64,000 nt of DNA, taken from positions 11,892,837 to 11,956,836 of the forward strand of contig NC_081374.1 in the NCBI RefSeq assembly GCF_030684315.1, written 5' to 3'. Position numbers and translations under genes: made by a program. This stretch comes from Stegostoma tigrinum. Taxonomy: Eukaryota. Below the pieces are notes generated by a model. That model made no database searches. It was given only the letters and a program-made list of their open reading frames with translations, and was not told the DNA's origin. Positions 7,591 through 60,779 of the stretch are shown here, one piece after another; positions within the stretch are counted from its first letter, which is position 1; each line of letters starts with the position of its first letter.

Positions 7591-7627
7591 ATGCAGAGGC
7601 TGGTTCTATTCATTTGTTTGGTGCTCG
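7591..7627 (+). pseudogene. G1 leader (signal peptide) exon
   Basis: ATG...MQRLVLFICLVL-G|gtgagt; 37 nt, phase 1, the same size and donor as the G4 leader. Confidence 0.8.
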
Positions 7628-10499
7628 GTGAGTGACAGCCCGAGCTGGCTATTTGGAAAGTCTATATTGGTTTACACTTTGCATACCTGCGATTCAGCCA
7701 TGATGTTTAAATACTCAGGGACACATACATGCACAGAACAGTCAGGAAAATGTTTGGGTCAAGTCTTGTCCTTATTTTATCTATACTACTACATCTCAGA
7801 AATATTTAACAATATGTGTGCTATTTATGGTGACTGTCAAAATATAGGTCCTCATTTTGTTTCTCACAAGAACCACAAATAAAATATTTCATCTGTGAAA
7901 AGTGCTATCCAATGGAGACTGAATGCTGCAGCGATAACAATGTCTGTAAGAGAACATTCCCTGAGTTTGCAGATGTTTCTGATCTTTAAAGTGCAGCTGG
8001 TGAAATATTGATGCTCAGACAATGTCACTGCTCCTCAATGACACACATTTTATGCACAGCGCTCCATCAATAAGGAATCTTTTCATACCAGTCTTTCGTC
8101 CCAAAGAAATAAATTTGTCACTTTTGCATCCACTCCAAATTATTCTAATGAGTTTAGCTGCAGTGAAGTTTTTGATGGATAACTTTCATGGGCCAACTTC
8201 AGAAATAGCTGAAGACTTTGCTATTTGACCTCTTCAAGAATGCTCCATCATTGAGCAACATTAAGGCTCCCTCAACACCACTTGCCTGAGCAAGACCCAT
8301 TTCTCTGATCAAAAAAGATTCACTCGCCAGTACACTGAATATATTTAAAGCTCATTGTCTACAGTTCTCTTGGTTCGAGAATTTGAAAGGTTCCCAACCT
8401 TCGAGTGACAGCGTTTCTCCTCATCTTCTTCCAAATGCCTGACTCCCATTTTTGAGACTGTGATTCTGTGTTCCACAGGGAAATGTATGTCTAACGTGGG
8501 CCCAATCAAACCCCCTAACCCTGGGGTCTTTATATATTTCAATGAGATCACCATCATTCCTTTAAATCCCAGGGAAAATTGATATGGCCAGAGAAGAATA
8601 AAGTCATGGAAGTCCAGACCAAAGAAAAAAGTCCTTTATTCCTTGGATCCTGCACTAGTTTAGAAATAATTTTCCTTCAATTCCCTCCAGACTTCCTGTT
8701 CTTACTTCAATATCTCTGGTCAAGAGGCCCTCCATCAAGGGGAAAACATTCTTCCTTTCTGCCTTGTTTGCTCCTCCATAATTTGATACATTTCACTCCT
8801 GTCCCTTCTCAATCACCATTGTACCAAGCAAACAAACCTAGTTTATCCAATCTCTTGTCATCACTAAATCTCAAGTTTAAATTCAAACCAAAGGAGATGT
8901 ACAGTCTATAGTCTAACTATTGGTGCAAAAGATAGAGATAACCTTCGTTTGGGAAATGAAGATGTAGGATCGTTTGGATGGAGATGAGGAATAATTTGGG
9001 TAAAGAATTCACTTGTGGGAATGACTTACAAATCCCTGAAGAGTAACTCTGATGTAAGGTGTATTTAAGGATAAATGGGTGCTTGTGATAAATAGATGGC
9101 AATAACTGAGAGTAATTGCCATCTGTTCAATGAGGGGTTTGTCCAGCATTTTTGAGACAGTCTCTTACAGCGACACATTCTGGCACCATCCAGATAGTTA
9201 GTCTTTGGTAAGAAAGTGTGAAGCTGGATCAACACAGCAGGCCAAGCAGTGAGTACAATCTGACTGAATTTTATATCCCATTTGAAACGTTGAGGTTTTG
9301 TTCTAAGATTGTTATTTTAAACTTTCAATATGGGCAACTGTATGGACATGATAGCTCAGCTTTCTGAAGTGAACTGGGATGTAAGGTTAGCAACTAAATC
9401 AGAAGAAGCTGTGACACACACTACAAGGGATATTTCAGAATGCTCAGAATGAAGAGATGCACATGAAAAGTTCCAAGTGGAGGATCTACATTTCCATGGT
9501 CACCTCGACGTATTCAGTAACTGCTCAGAAAAATACAGTCTCAGAGAGAAAATATACTTCTTTCTAAACCTTGTGTTTAATGTGAACTGAAAGCAAGCTA
9601 ATTTTCTTCAGTGGTGATAAATCTGTCATTAAGCGGCACAGTATAAACAATTTTCTAATACAATGCAATGAACAGCTTAGAGGCATTTGCTTGCTGACCA
9701 CTACTGGTCAATGTTTCACAGGGATTCTTACTTTCATTTTATTTGAAAGAAAACTCTTCATAGAAGTACCAATAAGAATCAGACAAAACTGATTCTGATA
9801 TCATGCAACTATTTTGAAATTTGTACTTCAAAGCTGATGGTAATATCACATACCATCCTGACATGGAACTATATTACCATTCCTTCACTGCTGATAAGTC
9901 AAAATCCCAGAACTGCTGAATATTATTTAAATTTTGACCAATGCAAAAATCCAAGAGGGATCAAGTTGTTTTGCATGAGTTACATGGAGTTAGAACGCAG
10001 GTACCAACACATGATTAAGCAGGCTAATACAATGCTATTCTTTATTACAAGAGGAATTGAATATAAAAGTGAGGACATTGTGCTTCAATGATGAAAGACA
10101 TTGTCCCTGAGGGATCACTATTTTAAAATTAGATATCACTTTTTTTAATATCGAGATGGAAAAATTTTTTCTCCAGAGAACTGTCTGTCACAGGAGGAGG
10201 TGTAGGTGGGTAGATATTTGTGAGACAAGTGTCAAAGATTATCAGGGTAAACGAAAACGTCGGATTGAAACTTAAGTGTCTCGGCCATGATCTTCTGAAT
10301 GGCATAGCAAGCTTCAAGGGATGAATATTCTACTTCTGCTTTGTCATTGCAGATTACAGTTCCAAATTTATATGTTCATATGCTTGTTTCAAATAGAGTG
10401 CAGAGTTTCCTGTGTGTGCAGCGGTAAAACTTATTAGAATGCATTTATTTCTATTAACAGCTTAATTCTTGCTCAATTTCTGAAAAGTTCACTTGTCAG

Positions 10500-10821
10500 C
10501 TTCAATTTCTCTGTGGACAAAGGAGAAGGTAACAGGAATTGTGGGAAGATCAATCACAATAGATTGTAACTACAACACAAGGCACAAGGACAACATGAAA
10601 TACTGGTGTCATAGCAGGACCACGCACTGCTCATATTTGGTGAGAATGACTGATCCAGGTGGGCAGTGATGGAGAACGTCAATCAAAGATAACAAGACAC
10701 AAGGAGTATTTGTTGTTACCATGGAGGGTCTTCACATGGAAGATGCAGGATGGTACAGCCTGTGGTATTGATCGAACAGCTGGTGATGAATTACGTGCTG
10801 TGAACCTCAAAGTATCGCACG
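10500..10821 (+). pseudogene. G1 CD300/pIgR-type Ig V exon (disabled)
   Basis: ttgtcag|..SISLWTKEKVTGIVGRSITIDCNY..KYWCHSRTTHC..*WRTSIKDNKTQGVFVVTM..EDAGWYS/CGI..NLKVSH G|gtacat. In-frame TGA at 10667-10669 and an extra C at ~10760. Confidence 0.9.
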
Positions 10822-10944
10822 GTACATTTTACGTCTTTTTTTATTAATCTCGACTGAAATATCTGACGTATGTTTTATCTGGGAGGAACCATGAAGCCTT
10901 TAATACCCCAAGGTGTTGCAGCAGAGCTCATATTTGTTGGTAGG

Positions 10945-13228: not shown

Positions 13229-13552
13229 AACCTGTGTCTGTTCTGATAATTCAGTTTTTATCACCATCAAATATCTCGTGTTTTGAGAACTCAGATTCTA
13301 CCTCCTGTGAGTCTGCCCAGGGATCCCTTCCCATTCGGTACAAATGGCATGAACAGATATCATCTGAAGATACAAAGATTTTTGAGATCAATAAGCTGCA
13401 TCTAAAATGTCAATTATTTAAACTGTAACTTCATTGATTTTACTGCACAGCATCAAATACTCAGGGAGAAAACTCCAGTGAAATGGTGAATGTATCAGTC
13501 ATCTACAAACCAGAGAAGAACTGCACTTTTGTGGCACAAATTGGGAGCTGTG
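13229..13552 (+). pseudogene. G1 C2-type Ig exon (disabled)
   Basis: EPVSV...SCESAQGSLPIRYKW...LHLKC..*..*FYCTASNTQG...EKNCTFVAQIGSC G|gtaaat. The acceptor AG is mutated to TG (13227-13228); stops at 13426 and 13435. Confidence 0.9.
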
Positions 13553-14353: not shown

Positions 14354-14534
14354 GAATTGAATTTAACTGTGAAGCTTCTCCGACAATGTCACCAGCAACT
14401 TCAACAACATCATCAAAAACTTCAAGAACATCACCAACAAATTCAAGAACAACACTGACAAATACAACGATTGCACCAACTATTTCAACTACAGATTCAA
14501 CCATATTTTCAAGGCCTGTGAATGCCAGTGAAAG
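14354..14534 (+). pseudogene. G1 Ser/Thr-rich mucin-like stalk exon
   Basis: tctccatag|GIEFNCEASPTMSPATSTTSSKTSRTSPTNSRTT...NASE AG|gtacaa; phase 1 to 2, compatible with both flanking exons. Confidence 0.8.
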
Positions 14535-15636: not shown

Positions 15637-15745
15637 ATAAGGTCCCTTCTTTCTGATGCTTTTCTTGTTAAAATATGCTAAAATTGCTGTCCTGGTGATT
15701 TGGGCTGTTTCAGTCACGGTGTATACAAGACAATCTAAGGTACAG
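15637..15745 (+). pseudogene. G1 transmembrane exon with Lys residues (activating type), premature stop
   Basis: ccttcag|A TAA GPFFLMLFLLKYAKIAVLVIWAVSVTVYTRQSKVQ|gtaatg; phase-2 start matches the stalk exon. Confidence 0.7.
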
Positions 15746-16130
15746 GTAATGCACTTTGACACATTCCTCCACTGCTTTTAACAATACTGATCACAGATAA
15801 TGTGAATCAGAACATTCATTGATAGAAATCCTTTCATGGCCCCAGGATGAAACAAAATGTGTTACAGCCAACACTGTAAGCGTGTTACTGTTGTCAAGCA
15901 GGAAAATCAAGTTGATCCTCATTCTGGATGGAATTATAATTTTTAAACTTTGTTGCTTCATCCACCCAGAAGGGATCAGTGTTACATCAGTCTAGTCTAA
16001 TCTCTGATGTATGAAAGTTTCACAGTGTGTTTGGTGGATGTTTTTATAACTTAATGACTTTGTCTTTACGACATCCCAGCCAAACTTAAAAAAGTTATCT
16101 TTCAAATATTAGCATCAATTTTTCAACAAA

Positions 16131-18108
16131 GAGAGAGCGGTGGAGCTTCTAGTGAAAAGGAAGAAGGTAGCTTACATAAGGTGGAGGAAGCTAGGGTCAA
16201 GTTCAGCTAGAGAGGATTACATGCAGGCAAGGAAGGAGCTCAAAAATGGTCTGAGGAGAGCCAGGAGGGGGCACGAGAAAGGCTTGGCAGAAGGAATCCG
16301 GGAAAACACAAAGGCATTTTACACTTACGTGAGGAATAAGAGAATGGTCAAAGAAAGAGTAGGGCCGATCAGGGATAGCATAGGGAACTTGTGTGTGGAG
16401 CCTGAGGAGGTAGGGGAAGCCCTAAATGAGTTTTTTGCTTCTGTCTTTACGAAAGAATCGAACTGTGTAGTGAATGAAACCTTTGAAGAGCAGGTGTGCA
16501 TGCTGGAATGGATAGAGATAGAGGAAGCTGATGTACTGAAAATTTTGTCAAACATTAAGATTGACAAGTCGCCAGGCCCGGATCAGATTTGTCCTCGGCT
16601 GCTTTGGGAAGCGAGAAATGCAATTGCTTCGCCACTTGCGAAGATCTTTGCATCCTCGCTCTCCACTGGAGTCGTACCTGAGGACTGGAGAGAGGCAAAT
16701 GTAATTCCTCTCTTCAAGAAAGGAAATAGGGAAATCCCCGGCAATTATAGACCGGTAAGTCTCACGTCTGTCGTCTGCAAGGTGTTAGAAAGGATTCTGA
16801 GGGATAAGATTTATGACCATCTGGAAGAGCATGGCTTGATCAAATACAGTCAACACGGCTTTGTGAGGGGTAGGTCATGCCTTACAAACCTTATCGAGTT
16901 TTTTGAGGATGTGACTAGTAAGGTTGATGAGGGTCGAGCTGTGGATGTGGTGTATATGGACTTCAGTAAGGCATTTGATAAGGTTCCCCATGGAAGGCTC
17001 ATTCAGAAGGTCAGGAGGAATGGGATACAGGGGAACTTAGCTGCTTGGATACAGAATTGGCTGGCCAACAGAAGACAGCGTGTGGTAGTAGAAGGAAAAT
17101 ATTCTGCCTGGAAGTCAGTGGTGAGTGGGGTTCCACAGGGCTCTGTCCTTGGGCCTCTACTGTTTGTAATTTTTATTAATGACTTGGACGAGGGAATTGA
17201 AGGATGGGTCAGCAAGTTTGCAGACGACACAAAGGTCGGAGGTGTCGTTGACAGTGTAGAGGGCTGTTGTAGGCTGCAGCGGGACATTGACAGGATGCAG
17301 AGATGGGCTGAGAGGTGGCAGATGGAGTTCAACCTGGATAAATGCGAGGTGATGCATTTTGGAAGGTCGAATTTGAAAGCTGAGTACAGGATTAAGGATA
17401 GGATTCTTGGCAGCGTGGAGGAACAGAGGGATCTTGGTGTGCAGATACATAGATCCCTTAAAATGGCCACCCAAGTGGACAGGGTTGTTAAGAAAGCATA
17501 TGGTGTTTTGGCTTTCATTAACAGGGGGATTGAGTTTAAGAGTCGTGAGATCTTGTTGCAGCTCTATAAAACTTTGGTTAGACCGCACTTGGAATACTGC
17601 GTCCAGTTCTGGGCGCCCTATTATAGGAAAGATGTGGATGCTTTGGAGAGGGTTCAGAGGAGGTTTACCAGGATGCTGCCTGGACTGGAGGGCTTATCTT
17701 ATGAAGAGAGGTTGACTGAGCTCGGTCTCTTTTCATTGGAGAAAAGGAGGAGGAGAGGGGACCTAATTGAGGTATACAAGATAATGAGAGGCATAGATAG
17801 AGTCGATAGCCAGAGACTATTTCCCAGGGCAGAAATGGCTAGCACGAGGGGTCATAGTTTTAAGCTGGTTGGTGGAAAGTATAGAGGGGATGTCAGAGGC
17901 AGGTTCTTTACGCAGAGAGTTGTGAGAGCATGGAATGCGTTGCCAGCAGCAGTTGTGGAAGCAAGGTCATTGGGGTCATTTAAGAGACTGCTGGACATGC
18001 ATATGGTCACAGAAATTTGAGGGTGCATCCATGAGGATCAATGGTCGGCACAACATTGTGGGCTGAAGGGCCTGTTCTGTGCTGTACTGTTCTATGTTCT
18101 ATGTTCTA
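16131..18108 (+). mobile_element. Young 5'-truncated CR1 LINE with an uninterrupted RT ORF (16140-18020)
   Basis: 626-aa open frame with NYRPVSLTS, DFSKAFD, GVPQGSVLGP and FADD motifs; (ttctatg)n tail. Confidence 0.97.
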
Positions 18109-25138: not shown

Positions 25139-25434
25139 TTTTATCTGTGAGAGATCATAACAACTTCACTATCCTGATGCCCTGCAGCAGTGAAGGGGTT
25201 TTGCAATGGGAGGGCAGGTATCCCAAAGCTTTGTTAAAAGAATTGGAAATTTAAGGCTAAGACGAGTGATCTAAAAATATCAGATTCGATTAACTGGAGT
25301 GCTGTTGTTCTTGTTCTCCTTGCCCTCCTCCAGGTAAAAAGTTATGAGGGTTTATACCTCCGTTCCCCATTTAACACTGAGTCCAGAGTTAAGAGGATGG
25401 AGGGTGATTTTTGTCCCTTTAGCAGCAGGGGGCA

Positions 25435-27938: not shown

Positions 27939-28265
27939 AACCCGTCTCTGTTCCTATACTTAGATTTTTATCATCTCCACCAAATGCCTCATGTTCTGGG
28001 AGCTCAGTGACAATCTCTTGTGAATCTGTCCACAGATCCCTCCCCGTTCAGTACACATGGTCTGAAAAGACCCCATCTGAAGATTCAAAGATCTCTGACA
28101 CCAATAAACTGGATCTACTTTGTCTATTCTTCACACAGCAACATCATCGATATTACTGCACAGCCTCAAATACTCAGGGCGAAAATTCCAGTGAAGAGGT
28201 TCATGTGTCAGCCAGCCACAGGTCAGGGGAGAGCTGCAGTTCTGTGGCATAAATCAGCAGCAGTG
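27939..28265 (+). pseudogene. G2 C2-type Ig exon with one late premature stop
   Basis: ttccatag|EPVSVPILRFL..NASC..VTISCESVHRSLPVQYTW..LDLLC..YYCTASNTQG..ESCSSVA*ISSS G|gtaatt. TAA at 28250-28252 corresponds to CAA in G1. Confidence 0.9.
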
Positions 28266-29407: not shown

Positions 29408-29486
29408 GAGGTGATTACTGTTCTGAACTTTCATCAGTCCTGTTGACAACTGCAAATTTGATAGTCATATGTCAACCTGATATAAG
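29408..29486 (+). pseudogene. G2 short stalk exon (predicted)
   Basis: tttcaacag|GGDYCSELSSVLLTTANLIVICQPDI AG|gtacat; open frame, phase 1 to 2 like the G1 stalk. Confidence 0.6.
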
Positions 29487-29772
29487 GTACATTTACCACA
29501 TCGTTAATGTTTGACAGCTTCCACGTGAGAGATTAAATCCTCATGAACAACATTTTGTTATTCATGAAGGAAAATATTTCCTATTTCACAATGTAGATCC
29601 CAGAATGGAAATGGGCTGGACTGACATCAGGCAGTTGCACTAGCTTCTTAACAAAGTGTGCTATGTGTTCTTATCATTTCGGTGTGGGGCTGATGGAAAA
29701 GCTGCTCTTCTGCGGATGAAAATGATAAATTACATCAATAAATCTGCTCTGCTCTAGTATCACTTGTGAAAA

Positions 29773-31170
29773 CCCTGGAAATTACAGACCAGCCAGTCTT
29801 ACGTCTGTGGTCAGCAAGGTTTTAGAAAGAATTCTCAGGGATAGGATTTATGACTATTTGGAAAAGCATAGCATGATTAAAGGGAGTCAGCATGGCTTTG
29901 TGAGGGGCAGGTCATGCCTTACAAATCTTATTGAGTTCTTTGAGGAAGTCACGAGACAGGTTGACAAGGGTCGAGCAGTGGATGTGGTGTACATGGACTT
30001 CAGCAAGGCATTTGATAAGGTTCCCCATGGCAGGCTCATTCATAAAGTCAGGAGGTATGGGATACAGAGTGATCTGGCTGCCTTGATTCAGAATTGGTTG
30101 GCTGACAGGAGGCAGAGAGTGGTTGTAGATGGTAAGTATTCTGCCTGGAGGTCAGTGCTGAGTGGTGTCCCACAGGGCTCTGTTCTTGGGCCTCTGCTCT
30201 TTGTAGTTTTTATAAATGACTTGGATGAGGAGGTTGAGGGGTGGGTTAGTATGTTTGCTGATGACACAAAGGTTAGAGGTGCCGTTGATAGTATCGAGGG
30301 CTATTGCAGGCTTCAGTGAGACATTGACAGAATGCAGAGCTGGGCTGAGAAATGGCAGATGGAGTTCAACCTGGATAAATGCGAAGTGATGCATTTTGGA
30401 AGCTCAAACTTAAATGCTGAATATAGGATTAAAGGCAGGATTCTCGGCAGGGTGGAGGAACAGCGGGATCTTGGTGTTCAAGTGCATAGCTCCCTCAAAG
30501 TTGCCACCCAAGTGGATAAGGTTGTTAAGAAAGCATATGGTGTTTTGGCTTTCATTAACAGGGGGATTGAGTTTAAGAGCTGCAAGGTTATGCTGCAGCT
30601 CTACAAAACCCTGGTGAGACCACACTTGGAATATTGTGTCCAGTTCTGGTTGCCCTTTTATAGGAAAGATGTGGAGGCTTTGGAGAGGGTGCAAAGGAGG
30701 TTCACCAGGATGCTGCCTGGAATGGAGGGCTTGTCTTACAAGGAGAGGTTGACTGAGCTTGGACTTTTCTCTTTGGAGAGAAGGAGGAAGAGAGGTGACC
30801 TGATCGAGGTGTACAAAGTAATGAGAGGCATGGATAGAGTCGATAGCCAGGGACTTTTCCCCAGGGCAGGATTGACTGCCACGAGGGGTCTTAGTTTTAA
30901 GGTGTTAGGTGGAAGGTATAGAGGAAACATCAGAGGGAGGTTCTTCACCCAGAGAGTTGTGAGCGCATGGAATAGTTTACCAGTGGTAGTCGTGGAAGTG
31001 GAGTCATTAGTGACATTTAAGCAACTGCTGAACATGCACATGGACAGCAGTGAATTGAGGGGAATGTAGGTTAGGTTATTTTATATTTGGATTAGGAATA
31101 TTCCATGGCACAACATCATGGGCTGAAGGGCCTGTACTGCGCTGTACTTTTCTATGTTCTATGTTCTATG
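29773..31170 (+). mobile_element. 5'-truncated CR1 LINE; RT interrupted by one TGA (30317-30319)
   Basis: ORFs 29807-30319 and 30332-31069 are in the same frame and closely match the 16140 ORF; (ttctatg)n tail. Confidence 0.96.
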
Positions 31171-32782: not shown

Positions 32783-32871
32783 TCCGGTTTACATTGTGGT
32801 CGCTGTACATGGGGCCATGCTCATTGTTTTTGCTGTTTTGCTGCTTTTGTACCTGAAGCAAGCCAGCAAGG
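32783..32871 (+). pseudogene. G2 transmembrane exon (no Lys/Arg within the TM)
   Basis: tatcgcag|SPVYIVVAVHGAMLIVFAVLLLLYLKQASK G|gtgagt; phase 2 to 1. Confidence 0.85.
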
Positions 32872-36262: not shown

Positions 36263-36548
36263 TAAATGTGAAGGAGTGAAGAGAACATGGTATATTCAGC
36301 TATGAAACACAAGCAAAGTAGATCAAGAGGAATACATAGTGAAGGAACTGCCCATTTTAAGAATAATACAAATGGAGTCATGTATGCAGAGCTGCAGTTT
36401 CAAAAGAAGTCATCAGCACGGAGTGGTGAGACAAGTTACTCTGTTACCAGGGGCAATGCCAAGGTTCAAAGCCAGCTCCCAGAGAACAAGGTCGTAACTC
36501 CAAAAGGAGAGAATTTGCCAGAATCTGAAATGGCAACTTATACTGAAG
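36263..36548 (+). pseudogene. G2 cytoplasmic exon with ITIM-like motifs
   Basis: ttttag|...SEENMVYSAM...GVMYAEL...EMATYTE G|gtaagt. The first 24 nt contain stops (phase 0) or a frameshift (phase 1). Confidence 0.8.
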
Positions 36549-41560: not shown

Positions 41561-43003
41561 ATATAAAAGTCCTAACATTCTTCTCCTTGCAAACAAATGA
41601 GTAATGTTTCAGAGAGTGATGATTTTAAGGTGGATTGTCCAAGCTGCACGTTTCTGAAATTTAAAAAGAAAATTGAAGCAGGACATTATGACAAAAGGCC
41701 ATTTGAGAAACAAAAGAATGAAATAAGAATAGAGCTGGATGAATGCAGCAGGCCAAGCAGCGTCAGAGAGGAGCTTTCCTGCTCCTCTGATGCTGCTTGG
41801 CCTGCTGTGTTCATCCACCTCTACACCTTGTTATCTCAGATTCTCCAGCATCGGCAGTTCCTACGATCTCTGAAACAAGAATAGCATTGGAGGAAGAGGT
41901 TATTGTTTTCCACTCTCTGGAATGTGATATGTTGGATGGATATCATTCTTTTGGTGATTTGTGCTGTTTCTGTCACAGTGTAGTCGACAAGGCAATATCA
42001 GGTGAGGATTATAATTCATTTATAATTATATTAATATATAATTATTCTGAGCACCTTGTAAGTACTCCAACTATTTCAAATAGGTCGCTCACAGATATTG
42101 TAAAGAAGAAAACTTGTATTTATTTCAATCCTTCCATGTCCTCAGGATGCAACAAACCATTTAACCGATCATGTGAGCAATTTTTGAAATATTGCTGATG
42201 TTGCCAAGGAAACATCAAGTGAATACCTGGTCAGAATAGCATCAGGCTTCTCGATCCTTGTCAATAGCTGCCCCATTAAGAAATGATCAGCTTTCTTAAT
42301 TTAAAATGACTCTGACTGATAAGTCAAAGTTTTACTTCGTCATTGAAGATATTTTCAATGAATTGTACAGATCTCAAGACATACCAAATGCCTTAAATTA
42401 ATTGAGTTTATTTGCACCGTTACTGTCATTATGCAGCAGAAGTAGCAGACATTTTGCAGATGGGAAAGTCTTAAAAAAGGGAGGGAAATGGATTCCCAGA
42501 TAATACCTGCTCCGGCTGGTAAACTGAACAAACTCTCTGGCTCCTCTTTAAATAGTCTTTTATACATCTATCTGATCATACAGTTGGGACTCACAGCTAG
42601 TGTTTTGTCTGACAGAAGGGTAGATCTCTACAGTGTTGAATTCAGCCTAGATTATGTATTGTCCCTGGTGAAAGGTTCCAACCCGGTTACAGAGATCTGT
42701 GTGGCTTTTCTTTCAAATTGGGGCCATTGGAGACACTTATCAACTTCACAACAAAGGCAGGAGTAGATCACCCATTTTAGAATGTAAATTGCTTGGCAGG
42801 AGAGCACCAATTTCTGCAGAAAAATCAAAAATAGGAGCAGGTGTAGGCCATTCAGCCCTTCAACTCTTTCCCCATTCACCTGACATGGAGAACTAGCCCT
42901 CCGTATTAGACTGCTGTCGTACATAGAGTGTGACTAGAGAGTTGGAATTGCTTTACTGTGACTATCTCCAGATTCCTATTAGAGTAGATAAGGACATCCA
43001 GCC

Positions 43004-44214: not shown

Positions 44215-47200
44215 ATTTTGAGATCGGAAGAAAATGTTTCCACATTTATTGCACATTTTGATATTCATCACAGATTGACACTGTAAGAAAATGTGTGAAT
44301 ATGCCCAAGGAAAATGTATGATAGAAACACACGAATGTACAATGAGCCTCAGTGTTAGCTCCTTTTCTGTGCACATTGGAGAGGTGCTGACTTGGTGCAG
44401 GACCTGCTGGAGGCTGACATCATGGTTCCTGGTCCATTTAAAGAACATCATTTGATGCAGATGGAACAAGCAGCGGACAGATGCTTAGGAGTCCTGCCTG
44501 AGCTTTATGCGGTTTATGAACGACAAAAATGATAGTGGAAAGATGAGAGAAGCTTTATCGACTAATTTGCAGGGTAGATTCTAAAGCGCAAGAAGCAGAG
44601 CTATCAATTTAATCGTGCCGTAAATTGGAGCTAAAGTTCCTAATCTCAGAACATTTACATATTGTCCAGGAACTGTCCAACAAATAGTGCAGGAGTCAAG
44701 GAACGTGCCACCAAATGTTATAGCAGGGACATTACACTACTCTTCCAATAGACTATAGACAATAGGTGCTGGAGTAGGCCATTCGGCCCTTTGAGCCAGC
44801 ACCACTGTTCATTATGATCATGGCTGATCATCCACAATCAGTATCCTGTTCTTGCCTTATCCACATAACCCTGGATTCCACTCTCTTTAAGAGCTCTATC
44901 CATCTCTTTCTTGAAACTATCCAGAGACTTGGCCTCCACGGCCTTCTGGGGCAGAGCATTCCATATATCCACCACTCTCTGGGTGAAGAGGTTTTTCCAC
45001 GACCCTGGTCTAAATGGCCTACCCCTTATTTTTAAACTGTGTCCTCTGGTCCTGGACTAACCCATCAGCGGAAACATGCTTCCTGCCTCCAGAGTGTCCA
45101 ATCCCTTAATAATCTTATACATCTCAATCAGATCCCCTCTCATCCTTCTAAACTCAAGTGTATACAAGCCCAGTCGCTCCAATCTTCCAAAGGCCTTCAA
45201 GCAACAAAATAATATTTGTCAATCAAAAATGATCTCTTTAGCCCAAACAAACTAGATTTAACTTCTCCTTATAAATATTCAATGCCTTACCCTCAGCTAC
45301 TTTGTGTGGCAGAGAACTGTATCAGCTCACCACTGTCTGGGTTAAGAATTATCCACACATCTCAGGCCTCATCTCAACATCCTCCCCGACCCGAAAACCA
45401 ATCCACCGGTTTTAATCAGGGTCTGCTAGACACCTGGGATTGTCCTCCTCTATCACTGGTAAAAGCCCCGAGCCTGTGGAGAAAGCCCTTTGGCAAACCA
45501 CAAACCATACCTACAGGCATTGTAACGCTGTGCGGGCAGCCATTGCCTACAGCTCATTAAAGAGATAGAACTGGGTCACCTGCAGCAATATGTCTGCAGC
45601 TACTGACAGAAATGTTCAGTGGAGAGGCATTCTGGAAAGACAGGGAGGGGACAGTTTTCTTAGAGCCCACATCACTGTTAATAAACTGGACATTGTGGGT
45701 GGGGCACTCTGTGTCATTCAAGGCTGTACTGAATGTTTTCACAATGAGCCCTTTGATTACTGTCTCTGTGAAGGTAACCTCCTGGGACAGGTTCGTGTAC
45801 ATGTTGTGGTGGATCACTGCACAATTCCAGAGCAACTGGGATGTCCATCCTGATGAGGGAGGGTTTTTGTGGCAGGCCTAGGCCCTGCAATTGTTGGTCT
45901 CAGAAGAATGGTCTTTTAAAAATGGCTGAATGCCTGCCAACCAGGGTATGGCTTTGACACTGAAAAAGTCACATAACAGGATTCCTGACAATTTGAACAA
46001 ATACTCCTCACTTTGTTACAAAGTGCTGCATTCACTGTTTCCTCACAGAGTCAAATTGACACACACAGCCCTCTCAGTAAGATGAAGGTTTCCACCTCTG
46101 GCTCCATGTTTAAAGCCCAGCAGTGTAACAGGTCAATCACTGCCAGCCAAGAATAGCCCTTCGCAGCATACGGGCTGGGGCTGGGAAAGAAGAAAGAAGC
46201 GTTTCTGAGTGCGCATTGCCGGTGCGCTGTGAACCTTTCGTGAGAATCCAATCTCAAATTCATAAATGATTTGCCACATGCCACTACAAACTGTAACAAA
46301 CTAGCAACACACGGTTGTTGCCCTGAGCATGATTCCAAATTACAGTCCTCTAGGAGGCAGTGCAATTCTTTCCCTCACATCCACATAGCACACAACTTGT
46401 CATTGTACAGTGTGAAGGCTGCACATGAGGCAAAACCTTCAAATTGTTGGAAATGGATGCAGGTTCAAACAACAGGAAAGTAATGCAAAAAGAAGTTGCA
46501 TCTGTGCCTGGCAGTGAACAGGAGCCATTTGCCTTTCAAGCAGCAACAAATTTACACTCAATAGATGATCACCCCTCAAATGAGTTCCATCTGAATCCTG
46601 TATTCATTAAATCCTCACCAGCTCTTCAGCATTCATTCAAAATCAGACTTATATTTTCTTGCTGTCGAAGATTTAATGTTTTAATCTTGGCACATTTTCC
46701 AACTGATTCTACAGTGCCCATGTCTTTCAGGGTCTGGGAGATCTCTGCTCTCTATTTCTGCTCTCTATTTCTGAGCCTCAGATACTGATGACCTCACGGC
46801 AGAGGGATTTCATCCACACTGGGGTAATAACGCCCAAATGTTTCTAAGTGTTCTACAGGAGATTACCCAATGTACTGTTTCTGTTTCCCAGACAGAGCAT
46901 TGCGATGGTCCTCACTGGTTCAGTCTCTGGGTAACAACTCCAGTGACTCTCCTTCTATATTAAGCATTAAGGTGGGAGCATTGCCTTCAGCATTGTGGGT
47001 GGGGGTTAGCAGGGGTGGTACAGGGTGTCAGCCCCTTTGATCTTCTCAACGATGAAACCCAGCATGATTCACCAGGCTCACTCATCATCAACCATATCTT
47101 AGGAAATACAAAGCCCCATGTCAGGCAGTTCACCAGAGGGACCCTAATCTTGGAATTGAAGCTCACTCCCAGTTCCTCAATCACAGTTCGCTTCTCCCAG

Positions 47201-47732: not shown

Positions 47733-47772
47733 ATGTTGCGGTGTTTGATTCTCCTCATCCATTTCATTCCCA
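47733..47772 (+). pseudogene. G3 leader exon
   Basis: MLRCLILLIHFIP A|gtgagtgacc; paralogous to 58219-58255. Confidence 0.8.
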
Positions 47773-48077
47773 GTGAGTGACCATTCAAGCTGCTTATTCA
47801 GATAATCAATGTTTGTTGACGTCTGCTGCCTGATTGTCCAGTAGAGATGTAAATATTTGGAGATATGTAAAGGCACAAATGAATATCTTGTGACACAGTG
47901 GGGAACATATTTATTGCTTTTACAGATGCTGAATGTTCGATTCACGCCCCAGCATATTTTGCAATGGAATGTGTATTCTGATAAACAGGTTCATTATTGA
48001 CCTGCAAATCCTCTGAACGTGCCCATGGCAGGGAGCAAGGGTGGGTGAGATTCCAGGTCAGCCTTATCCAAGGCAGG

Positions 48078-52735: not shown

Positions 52736-53050
52736 TTTCAGGTGCTTTATGGACAGAGAACCATGTAACAGGAATTTTGGGAAGAGTGATCACAATACAT
52801 TGCCACTGCTAAGCACGGTGGTATCAGTCACACGTGAAATATTGGTGTCACGGATGGTCTCGTCAGTGTAATGTTATAGCAACAACAAACTGGGCAAATG
52901 GGAGAATATCAATCACTGATAACAAAGCACAAGGAATATTTCTTGTTACAATGAAGAATCTTCAAAGGGCAGAAGCAGGATGGTACAGCTGTGGGATTGA
53001 GGCTCTTGGCCTTTATCCAACGTTTAATGTAAATCTCAGCATTTCTAATG
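52736..53050 (+). pseudogene. G3 Ig V exon (disabled)
   Basis: SGALWTENHVTGILGRVITIHCHC*ARW...KYWCHGWSRQC...EAGWYSCGI. TAA at 52810-52812; the donor GT is mutated to GA. Confidence 0.92.
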
Positions 53051-53189
53051 GAATGCGTCTCAGTGATTTTCTTATACTCTCCACTGATAGATCTGATCGA
53101 TGTTTAATCCTGGAAGTTTGGTGACAAAGGTTTTGAGGATATTTGATTATTCAATTGCAATGAACTTCAGAACAATTGTTTCTTTCCAT

Positions 53190-53503
53190 CTGTGTTCCTT
53201 CAGTTAGATTGACATCACAACAAAATGTCTCATGCTCTCCAGGCTCAGTGACAGTCTCTTGTGAATCTGCCCAGGGATCCCTCCCAATTCACTACACATG
53301 GCCTAAGAAAATCCCATCTCAAGAGTTAAACGCTTCACACAAATAAACTGGATCTACATTTTCATTCCTTCACACAGCAACATCAGCAATATTATTGCAC
53401 AGCCCCAAATACTCAGGGAAAAAATCCAGTGAAATTGTTCATGTGCCAGTCAATAATGTAACAGAGAAGAACTGCAGTTGCACGGTTCAAACCAATAACA
53501 TTG
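53190..53503 (+). pseudogene. G3 C2 Ig exon (acceptor lost, frameshifts)
   Basis: SCESAQGSLPIHYTW...YYCTA...EKNC; G|gtaagt donor at 53504. Confidence 0.88.
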
Positions 53504-53561
53504 GTAAGTGTGATGCCTGTAGATTCCTTAGAGAAAACCGAAGAAAATAACTCATTTAGGG

Positions 53562-54080
53562 CTTCATCCTATCTGCTCAGACTCCATGCACAAGTTCCCT
53601 ACGCTATCCCTGATTGGCCCTATCTTCTCCCTGATCATTCTCTTATTCCTCACGTATGAGTAAAATGCCTTCGGGTTCTCCCTCATCCTTCCTGCCAAGC
53701 CTTTTTTGTGCACCCTCCTGGCCCTCCTCAGTCCACTTCTGAGCTCCTTCCGAGCAAGCCTGTATTCCTCTAAAGCTGTGCTAGACCCTTGCTTCCTCCA
53801 CCTTACGTAAACTGCCTTTTTCTTTTTGACGAGAAGCACTTCTGTACCCGTCATCCAAGGCTCCTTAATCTTACCCCTTCTTACCTGTCTCAGAGGAACA
53901 AATTTATACATCACTCGCAACAACTGCTCCTTAAACAGTCTCTGCATGTCTGTTGTGCCCCTTCTGTGGAACAATTGCTCCCAATCTGTACTTCCCAACT
54001 CCTGCCTAATAGCATCATAATTTCCTTTTCCCCAGTTAAATATCTTCCCCTGGTAACTGCCCCTTTCCCTTTCCATGCCT
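53562..54080 (-). mobile_element. CR1 ORF2 internal fragment
   Basis: 170-aa minus-strand ORF whose C-terminal half matches the N-terminus of the 16140 ORF. Confidence 0.9.
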
Positions 54081-54785
54081 TCTTGCAGCTAGCCAATTTC
54101 TGATCCAAACCGCTAAATCACCCTCAATCCCATGCCTCCGTATTCAATCACCTTTCCTTAGCCACTGACTCCATCCATCTCCCTGTTCAACAGAGCCCTC
54201 ATCCAACATGTTTTGAGTTCCACACTCAGCCATTCCCATACCATCCCAGCTGGACTTGAACCTTCCACCATACATCAACTTAATCTCATCCAAATCTTTG
54301 CTCCAACTTTACATCTTTAAAGGTACGATAGAAATGCAAGTTACCTTGTTTGCAAACATTGATAGGGCAAGATTTTTTTAAAAATGTGCAAACCAGCCTA
54401 CTGGATCTAGAAAGATGTGAATCCATACTGCGCGGAAGAACAAATTGAAATATTGTCCCAAGCATTAAAATTCAAATTAATTTCAATTGAAATGAACAGA
54501 ATGAAATTCAAATTAAAACCTAACATTTTTAAAATAGCTTTCATTCCAACATTACATTATTTATAAAAATGCTTCTGTCTACAGCAAGCTACGTGTAAAT
54601 GGCTCATTCTCAATGAAGCCGCATTCAGTTTGGGCCCAGTCCATTAAATCCTCAACTAGAATCATGGTCATTGAGAAGTGTGAATGAGAATTACACAATC
54701 CCTACAGTGCAGAAAGAGGCCATTGGGCCTATCAGGGCTTCACTATCTCTGTCAAGAGCATCCCACCAGACTGAGAATTCCGCTC

Positions 54786-55536
54786 AAGATAACAAAGCGT
54801 GGAGCTGGATGAACACAGCAGGCCAAGCAGCACCTCAGGAGGACCAAAGTTGACGTTTCGGGCCTAGACCCTTCATCAGAAAAGGGGGATGGGGAGAGGA
54901 TTCTGAAATAAATAGGGAGAGAGAGGGAGGCGGATCGAAGATGGACAGAGGAGAAGATAGGTGGAGAGGAGAGTATGGGTCGGGAGGTAGGGAGGAGATA
55001 GGTCAGTACACGGAGAACGGACAGGTCAAGGGGATGGAATGGGGTTAGTAGGTGGGAAATGGAGGTGTGGCTTGAGGTGGCAGTAGGGGATAAGTGAGAG
55101 GAAGTACAGGTCAGGCAAACAGGGACGAGCTGTGCTGGATTTGGGCTGCAGTGGGGGGAGGGGAGATTTTGAAGCTGGTGAAGTCCACATTGATACCATT
55201 GGGCTGCAGGGTTCCCAAGTGGAATATGAGTTGCTGTTCCTGCAACCTACGGGTGACATCATTATGGCACTGCAGGAGGCCCAGGATGGACATGTCGTCG
55301 AAGGAATGGGAGGGGGAGTTAAAACGGTTCGCGACTGGGAGGTGCAGTTGTTTACTGCGAACCGAGCGAGGGTGTTCTGCAAAGCGGTCCACAAGCCTCC
55401 AGTTGGTTTCCCCAATGTAGAGGAAGCCACACCGGGTACAGCAGATACAGTATACTATATTGGCGGATGTGCAGGTGAACATATGCTTGATGTGGAATGT
55501 CATCTTGGGGCCTGGGATGAGCATGAGGGAGGTGGT
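54786..55536 (-). mobile_element. Truncated Penelope with a 12-bp TSD, nested in an old HE1 SINE
   Basis: IVYCICCTRCGFLYIGET; agaattccgctc at 54774-54785 and 55537-55548. Confidence 0.92.
54850..54881 (-). ncRNA. Minimal hammerhead ribozyme motif
   Basis: Minus strand reads tt-CTGATGA-a-ggg(tctagg)ccc-GAAAC-GTC-aa. Confidence 0.65.
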
Positions 55537-55799
55537 AGAATTCCGCTCTATTCCCTAAACCCTACATATCTAATGACTAACCCACCTGCACTACACAGCC
55601 TGCGAGCTCTTGGAAATTTGGCATGATCAATTCACAAACCTGCACATCAATGCAGCATCAGAGGAACCTGAAGCACCTTCTGGAAACCCATTCAGACACG
55701 CGCATAATGTGCAAACTGCACAGTGTCTGACAAGGCTTCAGTTGAACCCAGGTCACTGAGTCTGTGAGGCAACAGTGTTAACCACTGAGACACTGGGCT

Positions 55800-58200
55800 G
55801 TCCATACTTGTGAAGTTGAGATGTGAAAAAAATGCTTCTACATTTGTTGCATGCTTTGATGTTCGTTGTGAATTGACACTGTATGAAAAATATGTGAATT
55901 TTTTCAAGGGGGACGTGTGACAGAAATCCATGAATGTACAAAGAGACAAAGTGTTAACTATTTCCATCTGCACATTGGAGTTTGGTGTGTCAATGGAATG
56001 ACAGAGAGAAATGATTCAGGCAGGTTGAACAGTAACATTTAAAAATCATTCCGATAGATACATGGATGGGAGAGGTTTAGAGGGATATGGGCCAAATGCC
56101 AGGAATTGGAACGAGCTGGGGATGCACCATGGTCAGTATGGACCAGTTTGTGCTGAAGGGCCAGTTTCCACGCTGCCTTCCTCTATGAGTATATTACTTT
56201 ATTCTCAAGGGCTGGAATAATAGTATCATTTAAACTGTGCTCTCAACTGGAGCCATAGCTCTTACAGCTCAGAACATGTCTATGACAGAGTATTGTATCC
56301 GCTCAAAGCTTCGGGGTGAAGAATTATCCACACATCTCAGGCCTCATCTCAACGTCCTCACCGACCCGAAAACAAATCCACCGGTTTTAATGAGGGCCTG
56401 CTAGACACCTGGGATTGGCCTCCTCTATCACTGGTAAAAGCCCCGAGCCTGTGGAGAAAGCCCTTTGGCAAACCACAAACCATACCTACAGGCATTGTAA
56501 CACTGTGCGGGCAGCCATTGTCTACAGCTCATTAAAGAGATAGAACTGGGTCACCTGCAGCAATATGTCTGCAGCTACTGACAGAAATGTTCAGTGAAGA
56601 CACATTCTGGAAAGACAGGGAGGGGACAGTTTTCTTAGAGCCCACATCACTGTCAATAAACTGGACATTGTGGGTGGAGCACTCTTGTGTCATTCAAGGC
56701 TGTTCTGAGAGTTTTCAGAACGAGCCCTTTGCTTACCGTCTCTAAGAGGGTAACCTCCTGGGACAGGTTCGTGTGCACATTGTGGTGTATCACTGCACAA
56801 TTCCAGAGCAAATGGGATGTCTGTCCTGATGACAGAGGGGTTTTGTGGCAGGTTCAGTTCATACAATGGTTTGTCTCAGAAAAGCAGGCTTTTGTCAACT
56901 GCCAAGTGCCCATCTCACGGGATATGGTTTTGAAACTGAGCATGTTTTAAAACTGAGTGGCTTTTAAAAAGTGCTGGCTGCCCATCGACCAGAGCGTGGC
57001 ATTAACACTAAGCAAGACACTTCAGAGGATCTCTGGCAATTTGGTCAGACATTCTACACTTTGTTAAAAAGAACTGCATTCCCTGTTTCATCACAGTCTA
57101 ATGATAAGTCTCATTATATTTTTCCAGCTGTTTCTACAATGCCCATGTCATTCAGGGTCTGGCAGTTCCCTGCTCTCTATTTCTGACCCTCAGACACTGA
57201 CACCCTAATGTCAGAGGGTTTCATCCACATTGATGTAATAAACCCCAAATGTATCCAACTGTTCTACAGGAGATTACCCGATGTACTGTTTCTGTTTCCC
57301 AGACAGAGCATTGCGATGGTCCTCACTGGTTCAGTCTCTGGGTAACAACTCCAGTGACTCTCCTTCTATATTAAGCATTAAGGTGGGAACACTGCCTTCA
57401 GCATTGTGGGTGGGGGTTAGCAGAGTTGGTGCAGGGTGTCAGCCCCTTTGACCTTCTCAAAGGTGAAACCCAATTTGATTCACCAGGCTCACTCATCATC
57501 AACCACGTCCTGGGAACCACAAAGCCCCATGTCAGGCAGTTCACCAGAGGGACCCTCACCTTGGAATTGAACTCACCCCCCAGTTACTCAATCACAGCTC
57601 ACGTCTCCCAGAATTGTCTCTCTGTCAGCAGAGACCTTTTTCTGCCTGAAATCAGCCTCATTACTTGCTTAACTTGACTCTTATAAAAATGGAGCAGAGA
57701 GTGTCCTTCTCCTGCAATCCAGGAGTTCACAATAATTGACACAATAATTATTCTGCACTCTCAACAGGAGGCACATTCTGCAAACAAAAATTCAAAACAA
57801 ATCAATGTTTAACTGCACGATGAATTTTCACACATAAATCTGCATTTGTCATAAACTGGTGTTTGGAATTTTCTGACATGGGAGAATTAGACAGTTTTCA
57901 TTCACTTGAGAATTCAGTCTAAATACTGAGCTTCAGTCACTGCTATCTGTACAACTGACTCTTGAAATGTTGTGATTTCAGAAATTTTTTATTCATTCAT
58001 TGAAATTTAGTTGAGTTCTTCTGTTAAGCATAGCTGACAGGACAAACATTTCTTCAGGGTTAATTCGCATCATGTGGCAGACTGTAGTTTCAGAAGTTGG
58101 CTTCCTATATCCTCTTCCTCATTTACATTCTTGTAGACGTTGTATTACTCATTTATTTCAGCGTGAGAAACAAGAGCTGTGTGACTGACATCAAGAGCTG
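55800..58200 (+). repeat. Upstream block and promoter, copy 3 (precedes G4)
   Basis: Colinear with copies 1 and 2, with an internal deletion near 57100. Confidence 0.9.
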
Positions 58201-58218
58201 ATCTTTGTGAATAAAACA

Positions 58219-58255
58219 ATGTGGACTTTGATTCTTCTGATTTGTTCCATTCCCG
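58219..58255 (+). CDS. G4 leader exon of an MDIR/CD300-like receptor
   Basis: MWTLILLICSIP G|gtgagt; splices in phase to VSGALWAE. Confidence 0.88.
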
Positions 58256-59993
58256 GTGAGTGACCATCTGAGGTGTTTATTTCAATAACTAATACTTATT
58301 AAAGTCTCCCGTCTGGTTTATACAGTCTAGAGGTGTTTACATATTTGGAGACACGTAAAAAAACAAAGGAACATCATGTTGACACAGCAGGTAACATCTT
58401 TATTGCTGTGACAAATGCCTGAGAATTTGATTCATTCTCCAGCGCATTCTCACAAACCCAAACAGGTTCACCATCAACCTGCAAATTCTTTCAATGTGCT
58501 CATGGCGGGGAGCAAGTGTGGATGAAATTCCAGGTCAGATTTATCCAGCGCAGTGTGTTTCCTCTCAAATACTGTCTCAGGACAGTAACCTTTTCCAGGA
58601 AGAACAAACTGCAGAAATCTGATGCACCATGTGCTTTACGAAAGCCTTTGAAGTTCAAATGAAAAATGTAAAAATACATGAACAACATCAGGAAATATTA
58701 TATCTTCTTCTGAATATATGATAATGTCATGGGACATAGTTACAAAATACTTTACTGCTGCATTAGTAATTATCAATAAAATGAAAAAGGAGACATTTTT
58801 ATAGTGATTCAAACAGCATAAACAATTGAACTCGTCCAAAATTTTTCATTTTCAATATACACTGAAAACTGGAGTGGAAGTCAGCCTTCAAACAAAAGAT
58901 CTTGTGTTTTGATTTCATTCTTTTTTAACTCTTATGACAATTCATTAAATACTGTTTTGCAAGGTGCTGTCACAAAAGTAGGTGGTTAGATTATATATCT
59001 TCCCATAAAAAGCTTTTTTCCTTTCAGTCATTAAGTTTAACTGAGTTGCTGATGGTATTTTTTGCCCTTCACTTATAACTTTAAAATCTATCACTGCAAT
59101 AAACTTATTGTTCAGTATTGCCACTTCCCCTTCATTGATGATCAAGCAAATTTGAAACACAAAATATTAAAATTCCAAGGGGTGGAGCTCAATGAAGTGT
59201 TCGAGGAGAACCTTCTACAACAGTTTGAGACTCAACCTCATCAATTTCATGCAGAATACCTTACGGACAGTTAACTGAAGCGTGCTTCTGTGTGTTCAGA
59301 AATCCTCTTCGTTTCGAGGCTTCCTCTTTCCAATAAGAACTCTAATCCATGACTTCCATCAGCTTTAACCATTTATGCATTTTCTACCTTTTGCATTTCC
59401 TTTCAACAGCCTCATTTATTTTAAAATCTTTCTATCATTTCAGTCGAGAACTGTTCCCCACAGAAAGAGCCTATCTCCCAAAAAGACTGATCGTCTCGTG
59501 TCTTTTGAAGTAAACTCTACCCATTCATCAACAGGCTGTTCCCGCTCCACTCCAGGACACAATGTGACAGCAATGAGCCGACACACCAGCCCCCCATCAC
59601 TCCCTGGCTGAAAGCCTCACTCTCTGGTCAGAACAAGGACCCTCCACCCCCTGTAGCTTCCTTCACACTCATCCCCAGCTGACTCCAATCCAGGCCTGTC
59701 ACTCAGACTGCTCTCCAGGACGGCAAGATCTCGATGATGCCACACGCAGTGGAGTTCGAGCCCACAGCGTGTAACAGAAGGCCAATTTCAAGATTGATCC
59801 AAAACTCGATCAATGGGGAAACGCTGTTTAAATTATTCCCTGTGAATCTGGAAAACTCTGAGGGCCTGATAAGGGTTTATATTAATGATTACCTTCATCA
59901 TAAATTGGATAGAATGGAACTGATTACAATGTAACTGAAAATGAAAAGCACTTCTTTAGAAATTTCCAAATCTCTGAAATATTTTCTGCTCAG

Positions 59994-60308
59994 TTTCAGG
60001 TGCTTTATGGGCAGAGACATCCTTGACGGGAATTTTGGGAAGAGCGATCATAATACATTGCCACTATGAAGCACAGTGGTACCAGTCACACATTAAATAT
60101 TGGTGTCATGGATGGACTCGTCAGTGTAATGTTTTAGCAGCAACAAACTGGGCAAATGGGAGAATATCAATCACTGATAACAAAGCACAAGGAATATTTC
60201 TTGTTACAATGAAGAACCTTCAATGGGGTGAAGCAGGATGGTACAGCTGTGGGATTGACGCTCCAGGACTTGACCCACTGTTTAATGTACAGCTGCACAT
60301 CTCAGAAG
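59994..60308 (+). CDS. G4 CD300/pIgR/TREM-type Ig V exon (intact)
   Basis: ctcag|VSGALWAETSLTGILGRAIIIHCHY..KYWCHGWTRQC..GRISITDNKAQGIFLVTMKNL..EAGWYSCGI..VQLHISE G|gtacat; carries the family-specific extra Cys pair. Confidence 0.95.
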
Positions 60309-60458
60309 GTACATATGTCTCACTGATATTATTTCAATTTTCAATTCTGCTGATATCTCTGATCAAATCTTTATCCAGGAAACAAGATAACATAGTGTTG
60401 GAGGGTATTTGATTTTTTGATGGCAGTCGATTTCTCAACAATTGTTTCTTTCCCACAG

Positions 60459-60779
60459 AAGCTGTCTCTACTCCCAAACTTCAGTTTTTGTCACAACCAA
60501 ATGTCTCATGTTCTGGGGGCTCGGTCACCATCTCCTGTGAATCTGCCCGGGGATCCCTCCCCATTCATTACACATGGTATGAGAGCTCATCTCAAAACTC
60601 AAAGATCTCTGGCACCAATAAACTGGATCTACATTGTCAATCTTTCACACAGCAACATCATCAGTATTACTGCACAGCCTCAAATACTCAGGGAACAAAA
60701 TCCAGTGAAATTGTTCGTGTGTCAGTCAACAATGTAACAGAGAAGAACTGCAGTTACACAGTGAAAATCAACAGGATTG
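60459..60779 (+). CDS. G4 FcR-like C2 Ig exon (intact); the gene continues beyond the window
   Basis: cccacag|EAVSTPKL..NVSCSGGSVTISCESARGSLPIHYTW..LDLHC..YYCTASNTQG..EKNCSYTVKINRI G|gtaagt. Confidence 0.93.

Follow-up and report, generated by a model that had tools for sequence, protein, structure and literature searches.

An Exon-Level View of a Probable MDIR Receptor Cluster in the Shark Stegostoma tigrinum

A stretch of 64,000 nucleotides from Stegostoma tigrinum (NCBI RefSeq assembly GCF_030684315.1, contig NC_081374.1, positions 11,892,837 to 11,956,836 of the forward strand; hereafter the window) carries exons of receptors whose ectodomains combine two kinds of immunoglobulin domain, a V domain of the CD300/pIgR/TREM type and a C2 domain. 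To judge from its sequence, the window is very probably part of a shark cluster of MDIR genes, in which V-plus-C2 modules have been duplicated, shuffled and broken and of which the intact members would function as paired activating and inhibitory receptors. The family of MDIRs (modular domain immune-type receptors) is already known from skate; what is new here is a set of further shark members seen in their genomic setting, exon by exon. The gene copies and relics in the window are designated G0 to G4, and P-numbers are labels for the public proteins of relatives (P0005 is XP_059509193.1).

Membership in the MDIR family

The domains of G4, the copy whose exons are open, were searched separately. 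The C2 domain matched 105 proteins among 171 candidates, 104 of them from cartilaginous fish by source name, and the V domain matched 77 among 118 candidates, all 77 from cartilaginous fish by the same measure. Skate MDIR5 and MDIR3 are 62% and 64% identical to the G4 C2 domain, and skate MDIR2 is 54% identical to the G4 V domain; the accessions found for MDIR2 and MDIR3 agree with those given in the accessible part of PMC3031540. In trees built from a chosen subset of the stored proteins (57 C2 and 76 V domains), the V domains of the window and of skate MDIRs form one clade (support 98/86), as do the respective C2 domains (97/90). The MDIR clade is elasmobranch in both trees, and mammalian CD300 and turtle pIgR domains fall outside it, with six CD300 V domains forming a clade of their own (99/97). 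An MDIR-like locus had been proposed in the first-pass annotation, made from the letters alone, which recommended a search and a tree for each domain; both domains do nest with skate MDIR2, MDIR3 and MDIR5. Nor do they group together with a single-copy gene of characterised function, the outcome it had named as contrary to its proposal, the apparently single-locus relative in bony vertebrates having no functional name in the records examined.

The architecture is in keeping with this placement. MDIRs are defined by an ectodomain of V and C2 modules in varying number (PMC3031540, in the part available), and the ectodomains of the window, with CD300/pIgR/TREM-like V domains and differing numbers of modules, fit that definition. 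A six-frame scan with profiles built from relatives found three V, four C2, two Arg-type transmembrane (TM), one uncharged TM and one tyrosine-motif tail exon, all on the forward strand, and no V, C2, TM or tail match on the reverse strand of the window. Scores ranged from 117 to 158 bits for V and from 70 to 167 bits for C2. Three leader exons (G1, G3 and G4) were recognised by exon translation and alignment, and the two motifs on which the first reading of the sequence had relied, KYWC-x6-C and CES..GSLPI, are both present in the six-frame scan.

Several features of the comparison weigh against the assignment. The C2 tree includes one outgroup protein only (squirrel FCRL5), both trees draw on few columns, and their deep forks are unresolved. 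A different identity, in which intact members would be immunoglobulin receptors (a shark stand-in for pIgR, for Fc-alpha/mu receptors or for Fc receptors) and not sensors of lipids or patterns, draws on the facts that the V domain also matches pIgR and the C2 domain FCRL5, that relatives are often publicly named pIgR-like or FCRL5, and that forms with four to sixteen domains are known among them. It is nevertheless highly unlikely. Domain by domain, CD300 surpasses pIgR both in sequence (62 versus 36 bits for the best pIgR domain) and in fold, the turtle pIgR domains lie outside the MDIR clade of the V tree, and a variable ligand would suit the many near-identical paired copies and their high turnover better than would an unchanging host immunoglobulin.

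The public naming of such genes deserves comment. That the locus would be annotated only as pIgR-like or CMRF35-like fragments proved correct for relatives, which are named pIgR-like, CMRF35-like or FCRL5, but not for G4 itself, which lies within an 'uncharacterized' read-through model. Many public models, among them P0005, P0006, P0015, P0039 and P0308, are read-through products in which at least two MDIR genes are fused; domain counts are inflated and pairing is concealed as a result. Fused models stand at LOC132210796 and LOC125462655. V-only multi-domain genes called pIgR-like (P0160, P0147, P0155 and P0094) lie on the same chromosome-length contig as MDIRs in skate and stingray and have locus numbers neighbouring MDIRs in Scyliorhinus torazame; some have the same Arg-type TM end. 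In skate, the model P0067 joins a TRIM69-like gene with an MDIR and so suggests that a TRIM gene lies next to the cluster.

Paired membrane ends and the open gene start

A census of 124 cartilaginous-fish relatives separates them by membrane end: 39 bear an Arg-type TM alone and 47 an uncharged TM alone, 36 bear none, and the two that have both are read-through models. The consensus of the immunoreceptor tyrosine-based inhibitory motif (ITIM) stands behind 47 of 49 uncharged TMs versus 2 of 36 Arg-type TMs. The window holds both TM types and an ITIM tail, all in broken copies, while both types are intact in XP_059509193.1, the public model that contains G4. This model and the census together bear out the earlier suggestion of a paired activating/inhibitory family. 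The prediction is that intact members work as paired immune receptors on the cell surface, probably of leukocytes, the Arg-TM forms likely activating through an adaptor with an immunoreceptor tyrosine-based activation motif and the ITIM-tailed forms likely inhibiting through recruitment of phosphatases.

The link between G4 and these ends runs through the public model. The leader, V and C2 exons of G4 translate, letter for letter, into residues 1-224 of XP_059509193.1 (RefSeq, Stegostoma tigrinum, 'uncharacterized'); its introns are GT-AG and phase 1, all four splice sites are canonical, and the exon coordinates are as first annotated. Beyond the window, the model adds another V-C2 module, then a stalk, then a TM starting W-N-V-I-R-W, of the NxxR type. 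Read-through then joins it to another gene, whose ectodomain is 95% identical and which has an uncharged TM as well as three tyrosine motifs (ITIMs); the four modules of the model are mutually 95-99% identical. Two in-frame acceptors 6 nucleotides apart (59988-60000, the second at 60000) precede the V exon in G4, and likewise in G3, the first being that used by the public model and by skate cDNAs.

That the TM and tail of G4 lie outside the window, and that their link to it depends on one automatic gene model fusing two genes, counts against reading G4 as the start of an intact receptor. G4 might instead be a dead or truncated fragment whose open frame merely reflects recent duplication, since G3 has the same leader-V-C2 layout with nothing downstream, a Penelope-type element begins 1 kb after the G4 C2 exon, and near-identical G4-type modules are numerous. 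The canonical splice sites, together with the in-frame continuation of the model into a layout that is also that of the skate cDNA MDIR5, make such a fragment decidedly unlikely.

The mode of activation is a separate matter. In Xenopus XFL an NxxR motif at the start of the TM confers association with FcRgamma (reported in the available part of PMC2413239), and the NxxR module and FcRgamma coupling are also touched on in the accessible text of PMC4536121. The model continuing G4 has NVIR at this position, where the orphan TM of the window has N-V-I-C. Weighing against an NxxR mechanism in sharks, just 5 of the 43 Arg-type TMs show the strict motif (DxxR in 12, KxxR in 17; Arg is present in 43 of 43 by selection). 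In addition, a 2014 survey (PMC4016189) reported no FcRgamma for cartilaginous fish, shark FcRgamma not having been searched for here, and a literature search found no later report of one. Both points speak against carrying the coupling of XFL over to shark receptors in any simple way.

Broken copies, turnover and conserved upstream cores

The features of the window are listed in Table 1. No single copy in it has all six exon types: G1 consists of leader, V, C2, stalk and a damaged TM, G2 of C2, stalk, TM and tail, and G3 and G4 of leader, V and C2 only. Profile and similarity searches found no stalk exon in 53504-58218, behind G3, or in 60780-64000, behind G4. The first-pass annotation had described four copies sharing leader, V, C2, stalk, TM and tail; the exon types are real, but their sharing is not, as G2 is without leader and V, and G3 and G4 without stalk, TM and tail in the window. 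Its view of G4 as the only intact copy there holds, the lesions of G1 to G3 being stops, frameshifts and lost splice sites, while its list overlooked the orphan Arg-type TM (about 41897-42001) and the exon-less relic at 457-5051, outside its coordinates.

Table 1. Positions of receptor exons, relics and conserved non-coding cores in the window
Feature	Position	Strand	State and remarks
G0 relic	457..5051	+	upstream block, proximal promoter 4032-4208 and intron-1 fragment 4834-5051, all of G3/G4 type; self-BLAST and alignments
Core A	1218..1470 (G0), 45446..45698 (G3), 56421..56673 (G4)	.	244/253 columns identical in all three copies
Core B	1862..1990 (G0), 46113..46241 (G3)	.	not found before G4
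Core C	2600..2870 (G0), 46831..47101 (G3), 57242..57512 (G4)	.	246/271 columns identical in all three copies
G1 leader exon	7591..7627	+	37 nt, phase 1; diverged, homologous to G4 leader region (local alignment score 98 vs shuffle maximum 38)
G1 V exon	10500..10821	+	broken: stop 10667, frameshift near 10765; 86% to first V of LOC125462655
G1 C2 exon	13229..13552	+	broken: acceptor reads TG, stops 13426 and 13435
G1 Ser/Thr-rich stalk exon	14354..14534	+	open, phase 1 to 2; best match is the stalk of activating-type P0104
G1 Arg-type TM remnant	15637..15739	+	22.7 bits, profile positions 18-35 of 38; 3' half only, W-x-x-x-R-W part absent
G2 C2 exon	27939..28265	+	one stop, 28250; clade 99/88 with P0045 and P0046 C2
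G2 short stalk exon	29408..29486	+	phase 1 to 2; 50% to P0045 stalk
G2 uncharged TM exon	32783..32871	+	open; 47.1 bits; 86% to P0039
G2 cytoplasmic tail exon	36263..36548	+	MVYSAM and VMYAEL (ITIM-type); stops 36263 and 36269 in frame; 95.9 bits; 83% to P0039
Orphan Arg-type TM exon	41897..42001	+	broken: Cys at Arg position (N-V-I-C), stop 41981; 18.3 bits
G3 leader exon	47733..47772	+	40 nt, phase 1
G3 V exon	52736..53050	+	broken: stop 52810, donor lost; 86% nucleotide identity to G4 V
G3 C2 exon	53191..53503	+	broken: acceptor lost, frameshift
G4 leader exon	58219..58255	+	open; identical to public model
G4 V exon	59994..60308	+	open; CD300/pIgR/TREM-type V; Pfam V-set; second Cys pair C35, C42
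G4 C2 exon	60459..60779	+	open; five cysteines; Pfam Ig_3, Ig_2, Ig_C17orf99; nearest solved sequence FCRL5 (PDB 9loc)

The relationships of G1 and G2 bear on how these wrecks arose. In the tree, four-domain bamboo-shark genes have the orthologue of the G2 C2 domain in their second C2. One four-domain gene type (P0039, P0045, P0046, P0308 and P0015) has orthologues of the V and C2 of G1 in its first module and of the C2, stalk, TM and tail of G2 in its second half, while the stalk and TM of G1 match two-domain activating genes (P0104). LOC125462655 and Chiloscyllium LOC122562925 are intact relatives. The orphan TM is 71% identical over 21 amino acids to the TM of P0005 and 81% over 52 nucleotides to that of G1; a V, C2 or stalk of its own was not found by profile scan or similarity search. 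Between G1 and G2, tblastn with four orthologous second-V queries found no V, and a leader for G2 was likewise not found. Most simply, the sequence would hold the remains of a two-domain activating gene, then the 3' half of a four-domain inhibitory gene that has lost its 5' part, and then an orphan activating TM.

Alternatively, G1 and G2 could have been one transcription unit with alternative 3' ends, a single gene making both polarities. Its leader, V and C2 would give an activating form by ending in the proximal stalk and Arg-type TM, or an inhibitory one by continuing into the second C2 with its stalk, uncharged TM and ITIM tail; the orphan Arg-type TM would be one more choice of last exon. 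Such a unit would explain why the same four-domain genes (P0045, P0046 and P0039) supply both the first module, with which the G1 V and C2 group, and the second, with which the G2 C2 groups. It would also explain the want of any leader, V or upstream block belonging to G2. A phase-2 stalk end precedes both TM types, and one and the same combination of ectodomain and stalk leads in P0308 to an uncharged TM with ITIMs, in P0307 to an Arg-type TM. These two proteins come from different species, however, and may be separate paired genes; free-standing two-domain activating genes with a stalk and TM like those of G1 exist (P0104); none of the isoform sets examined has both TM types under one gene; and the 12 kb between G1 and G2 are rich in retroelements, so that deletion accounts equally well for the lost 5' half. 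A single unit is judged unlikely, and the succession of separate broken genes is preferred.

Some other candidates in this part of the window were set aside. A possible G2 leader (25279-25333), a possible exon at 33899-33967 and the exon-like segment 40811-40921, which has AG/GT ends and an I-x-Y motif, have no relative among the stored proteins and were left out of the gene model. A Lys in the G1 TM was dropped as an activating residue, that half of the exon not matching the TM profile. The segment 33763-33843, which weakly matches (E 0.007) part of the cytoplasmic region in the Chiloscyllium model P0308, could be one more decayed G2 exon.

G3 and G4 belong to a second subfamily, distinct from that of G1 and G2, and both subfamilies are common to whale and bamboo sharks. 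The C2 exons of G3 and G4 are 81% identical, and their V exons share an identical run of 76 nucleotides (52883-52958 in the pseudogene G3, 60141-60216 in G4), which suggests that gene conversion acts between the V exons. A contig of a public DNA run spans 52971-53562 in the C2 region of G3 with one differing letter and no gap; because it carries the same region, the lesions there are no quirk of this assembly, unless that run was its source. No exon of G0 was found by the profile scan of 457-5051.

The modules of the G4 type appear to be young. In two DNA runs, contigs of this type, about 97% alike, have 4-7 times the depth of contigs of the G3 region (33-46 versus 5-10 and 142-149 versus 18-23). 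As points on the other side, contig read depth is not copy number, and the assembly itself may have been built from these runs; the G4-type contigs are collapsed. The rapid birth-and-death evolution proposed at first reading agrees with the 95-99% likeness of G4-type modules and with the broken state of all other copies, but the lineages on which it acts are subfamilies that also occur in whale and bamboo sharks.

Upstream of G0, G3 and G4 lie low-copy non-coding cores that are far more alike than the exons nearby. Cores A and C are 91-96% invariant across the three units versus 88/148 and 121/168 columns in their flanks, exceed the G3/G4 V (86%) and C2 exons in likeness, and are kept even before the dead gene G3 and the relic G0. 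Core C ends 632 nucleotides before the ATG in G3 and 707 before it in G4. In permutation tests the longest identical runs, of 84-131 nucleotides, exceeded 2000 of 2000 shuffles; a retroelement control also had an identical run of 60 nucleotides (7 of 2000 shuffles). Each copy has one RUNX-like site and one site like an interferon-stimulated response element, by consensus patterns and in copies that are not independent. The cores could serve as enhancers, and the chance of this is put at about even with their being conversion tracts, because the 76-nucleotide run points to gene conversion and because the retroelement control has its own identical run. An RNA gene or a hidden coding exon was rejected (no Rfam match, no folding signal with z from -0.45 to 1.35 on 6 of 6 strands, no shared open frame), as were genome-wide repeats (bin depth 25-235 versus thousands to millions for retroelements).

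The window as a whole matched no Rfam family and includes several retroelements. CR1-like copies lie at 16113-18017 and 29768-31168, the first with an open frame of 635 codons and a reverse transcriptase domain. A fragment of a Penelope-type element (33968-34886), with 14-nucleotide direct repeats at 33954-33967 and 34887-34900, sits between the TM and tail exons of G2. Penelope-type sequence also occurs at 61815-64000 on the reverse strand, where it begins 1 kb past the G4 C2 exon, and at 54788-55536, with weak matches to reverse transcriptase and GIY-YIG domains.

Predicted ligand, wider relatives and known systems

The structural model of the G4 V domain (predicted local distance difference test, pLDDT, 96.3) has mouse CD300lf as its best fold match (TM-score 0.91, root-mean-square deviation 1.5), ahead of pIgR and TREM2. 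In CD300lf, phosphocholine is bound by a calcium ion that Asp98 and the carbonyls of Lys94 and Gly96 hold in place, and Cys36-Cys44, Tyr34, Trp89, Gln41, Arg42 and Met100 form the lining of the cleft (PMC6166816). The G4 V domain aligns without gaps to the CD300lf FG loop and keeps the equivalents of Gly96 and Asp98; in the CC' loop, by position relative to the cysteines, it keeps those of Tyr34, Cys36, Cys44 and Arg42. A CD300-like V would then bind a calcium-bridged lipid head group or a similar ligand. Set against this prediction are Ser in place of Trp89, Thr in place of Gln41 and Leu in place of Met100, as well as the presence of the Asp98 equivalent in only 157 of 272 cartilaginous-fish V domains and its absence from the V domains of skate MDIR3 and MDIR5. 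The equivalent is present in 22 of 22 bony-vertebrate V domains. By analogy and from the model, lipid binding by the MDIR V domain is a tentative prediction, somewhat short of an even chance. The C2 model (pLDDT 88.7) had no match under E 0.001 in the fold search, which likewise weighs against the overall assignment.

Relatives also occur among bony vertebrates. In a profile search of 1.84 billion representative sequences, the best 150 matches included 131 new proteins, 17 of them with both V and C2, and three of these 17 came from a caecilian and two teleosts. A follow-up search (38 matches) placed V-C2 proteins in 18 named teleost species and the caecilian, with one locus each among the matches; the single copy is read from matches, not from genomes. 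Of the 19 bony proteins checked, 15 have W-Y-x-x-x-R-W in the TM. The bony V domain joins the MDIR clade, apart from CD300 and pIgR (98/90, with long branches flagged), and orthology of the bony gene to MDIR is likely on the strength of its sequence. MDIRs are also reported from zebrafish in the part of PMC3031540 available, and the teleost gene may be that zebrafish MDIR and hence already in print.

A far-reaching reading would make the V-C2 MDIR an overlooked ancestral receptor of jawed vertebrates. It would persist as one conserved activating gene in teleosts and the caecilian, sense lipid through a calcium pocket of the CD300lf type and signal through an NxxR-type TM; in sharks and rays it would have expanded into paired families, in some of whose genes the choice of TM exon would switch the protein between activating and inhibitory ends, with upstream enhancers that are held in common and hardly vary. 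Taken as a whole this is improbable. As a cluster, the locus is ordinary for a paired-receptor family. MDIRs are nevertheless the best candidate for a large family of paired innate receptors in cartilaginous fish and have been little studied, public models hiding them under pIgR-like, CMRF35-like, FCRL5 or fused 'uncharacterized' entries. The window adds exon-level evidence of module shuffling. Through the teleost relative, which seems to occupy a single locus, laboratory fish would offer a way to test ligand and adaptor, and an NxxR-type TM in sharks is relevant to dating the origin of FcRgamma-type signalling.

The closest known system is the MDIRs of clearnose skate (MDIR2 ABC86796.1, MDIR3 ABC86797.1 and MDIR5 ABC86800.1), together with the Callorhinchus 'MDIR2' AFK11143.1. 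The skate proteins share leader, V and C2 modules that are 54-64% identical, ITIM tails in MDIR2 and MDIR3 and, in MDIR5, the V-C2-V-C2-stalk-Arg TM layout of the model that holds G4; MDIR5 is said, in the original paper of Cannon et al. from 2006, to be without signalling motifs. The window copies differ as shark-lineage subfamilies whose pseudogenes, relics and conserved upstream cores are visible in the genomic view. The unnamed V-C2 gene of teleosts and caecilian (for example XP_066526608.1 and XP_029428703.1) has the same V-C2-stalk layout, C2 cysteines, Asp98 equivalent and Arg-type TM, but shows one locus per species among the matches, no ITIM-tailed form and 25-42% identity. FCRL5 and Xenopus XFL share the C2 motif CES..GSLPI.Y, the best solved sequence being FCRL5 domain 5, and XFL has the same two TM classes, NxxR with a short tail versus uncharged with tyrosine motifs (PMC2413239, in the part available); in contrast, FCRL and XFL have no V domain, and the MDIR C2 has three extra cysteines and no clear fold match. 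pIgR differs in an ectodomain of V domains only and in its tetrapod grouping, whereas the window has C2 after V and groups with MDIR. Mammalian CD300 architecture consists of V and stalk, with no C2. Mouse CD300lf/CLM-1 (PDB 5ffl, 6c6q) shares the V fold, the second (CC') disulfide and the G-L-D-P-x-F loop with its calcium-binding Asp, and CD300 genes are likewise paired as activating and inhibitory; in the window, a C2 exon follows V in G1, G3 and G4, the V domains form a separate clade and the pocket equivalents of Trp and Gln differ.

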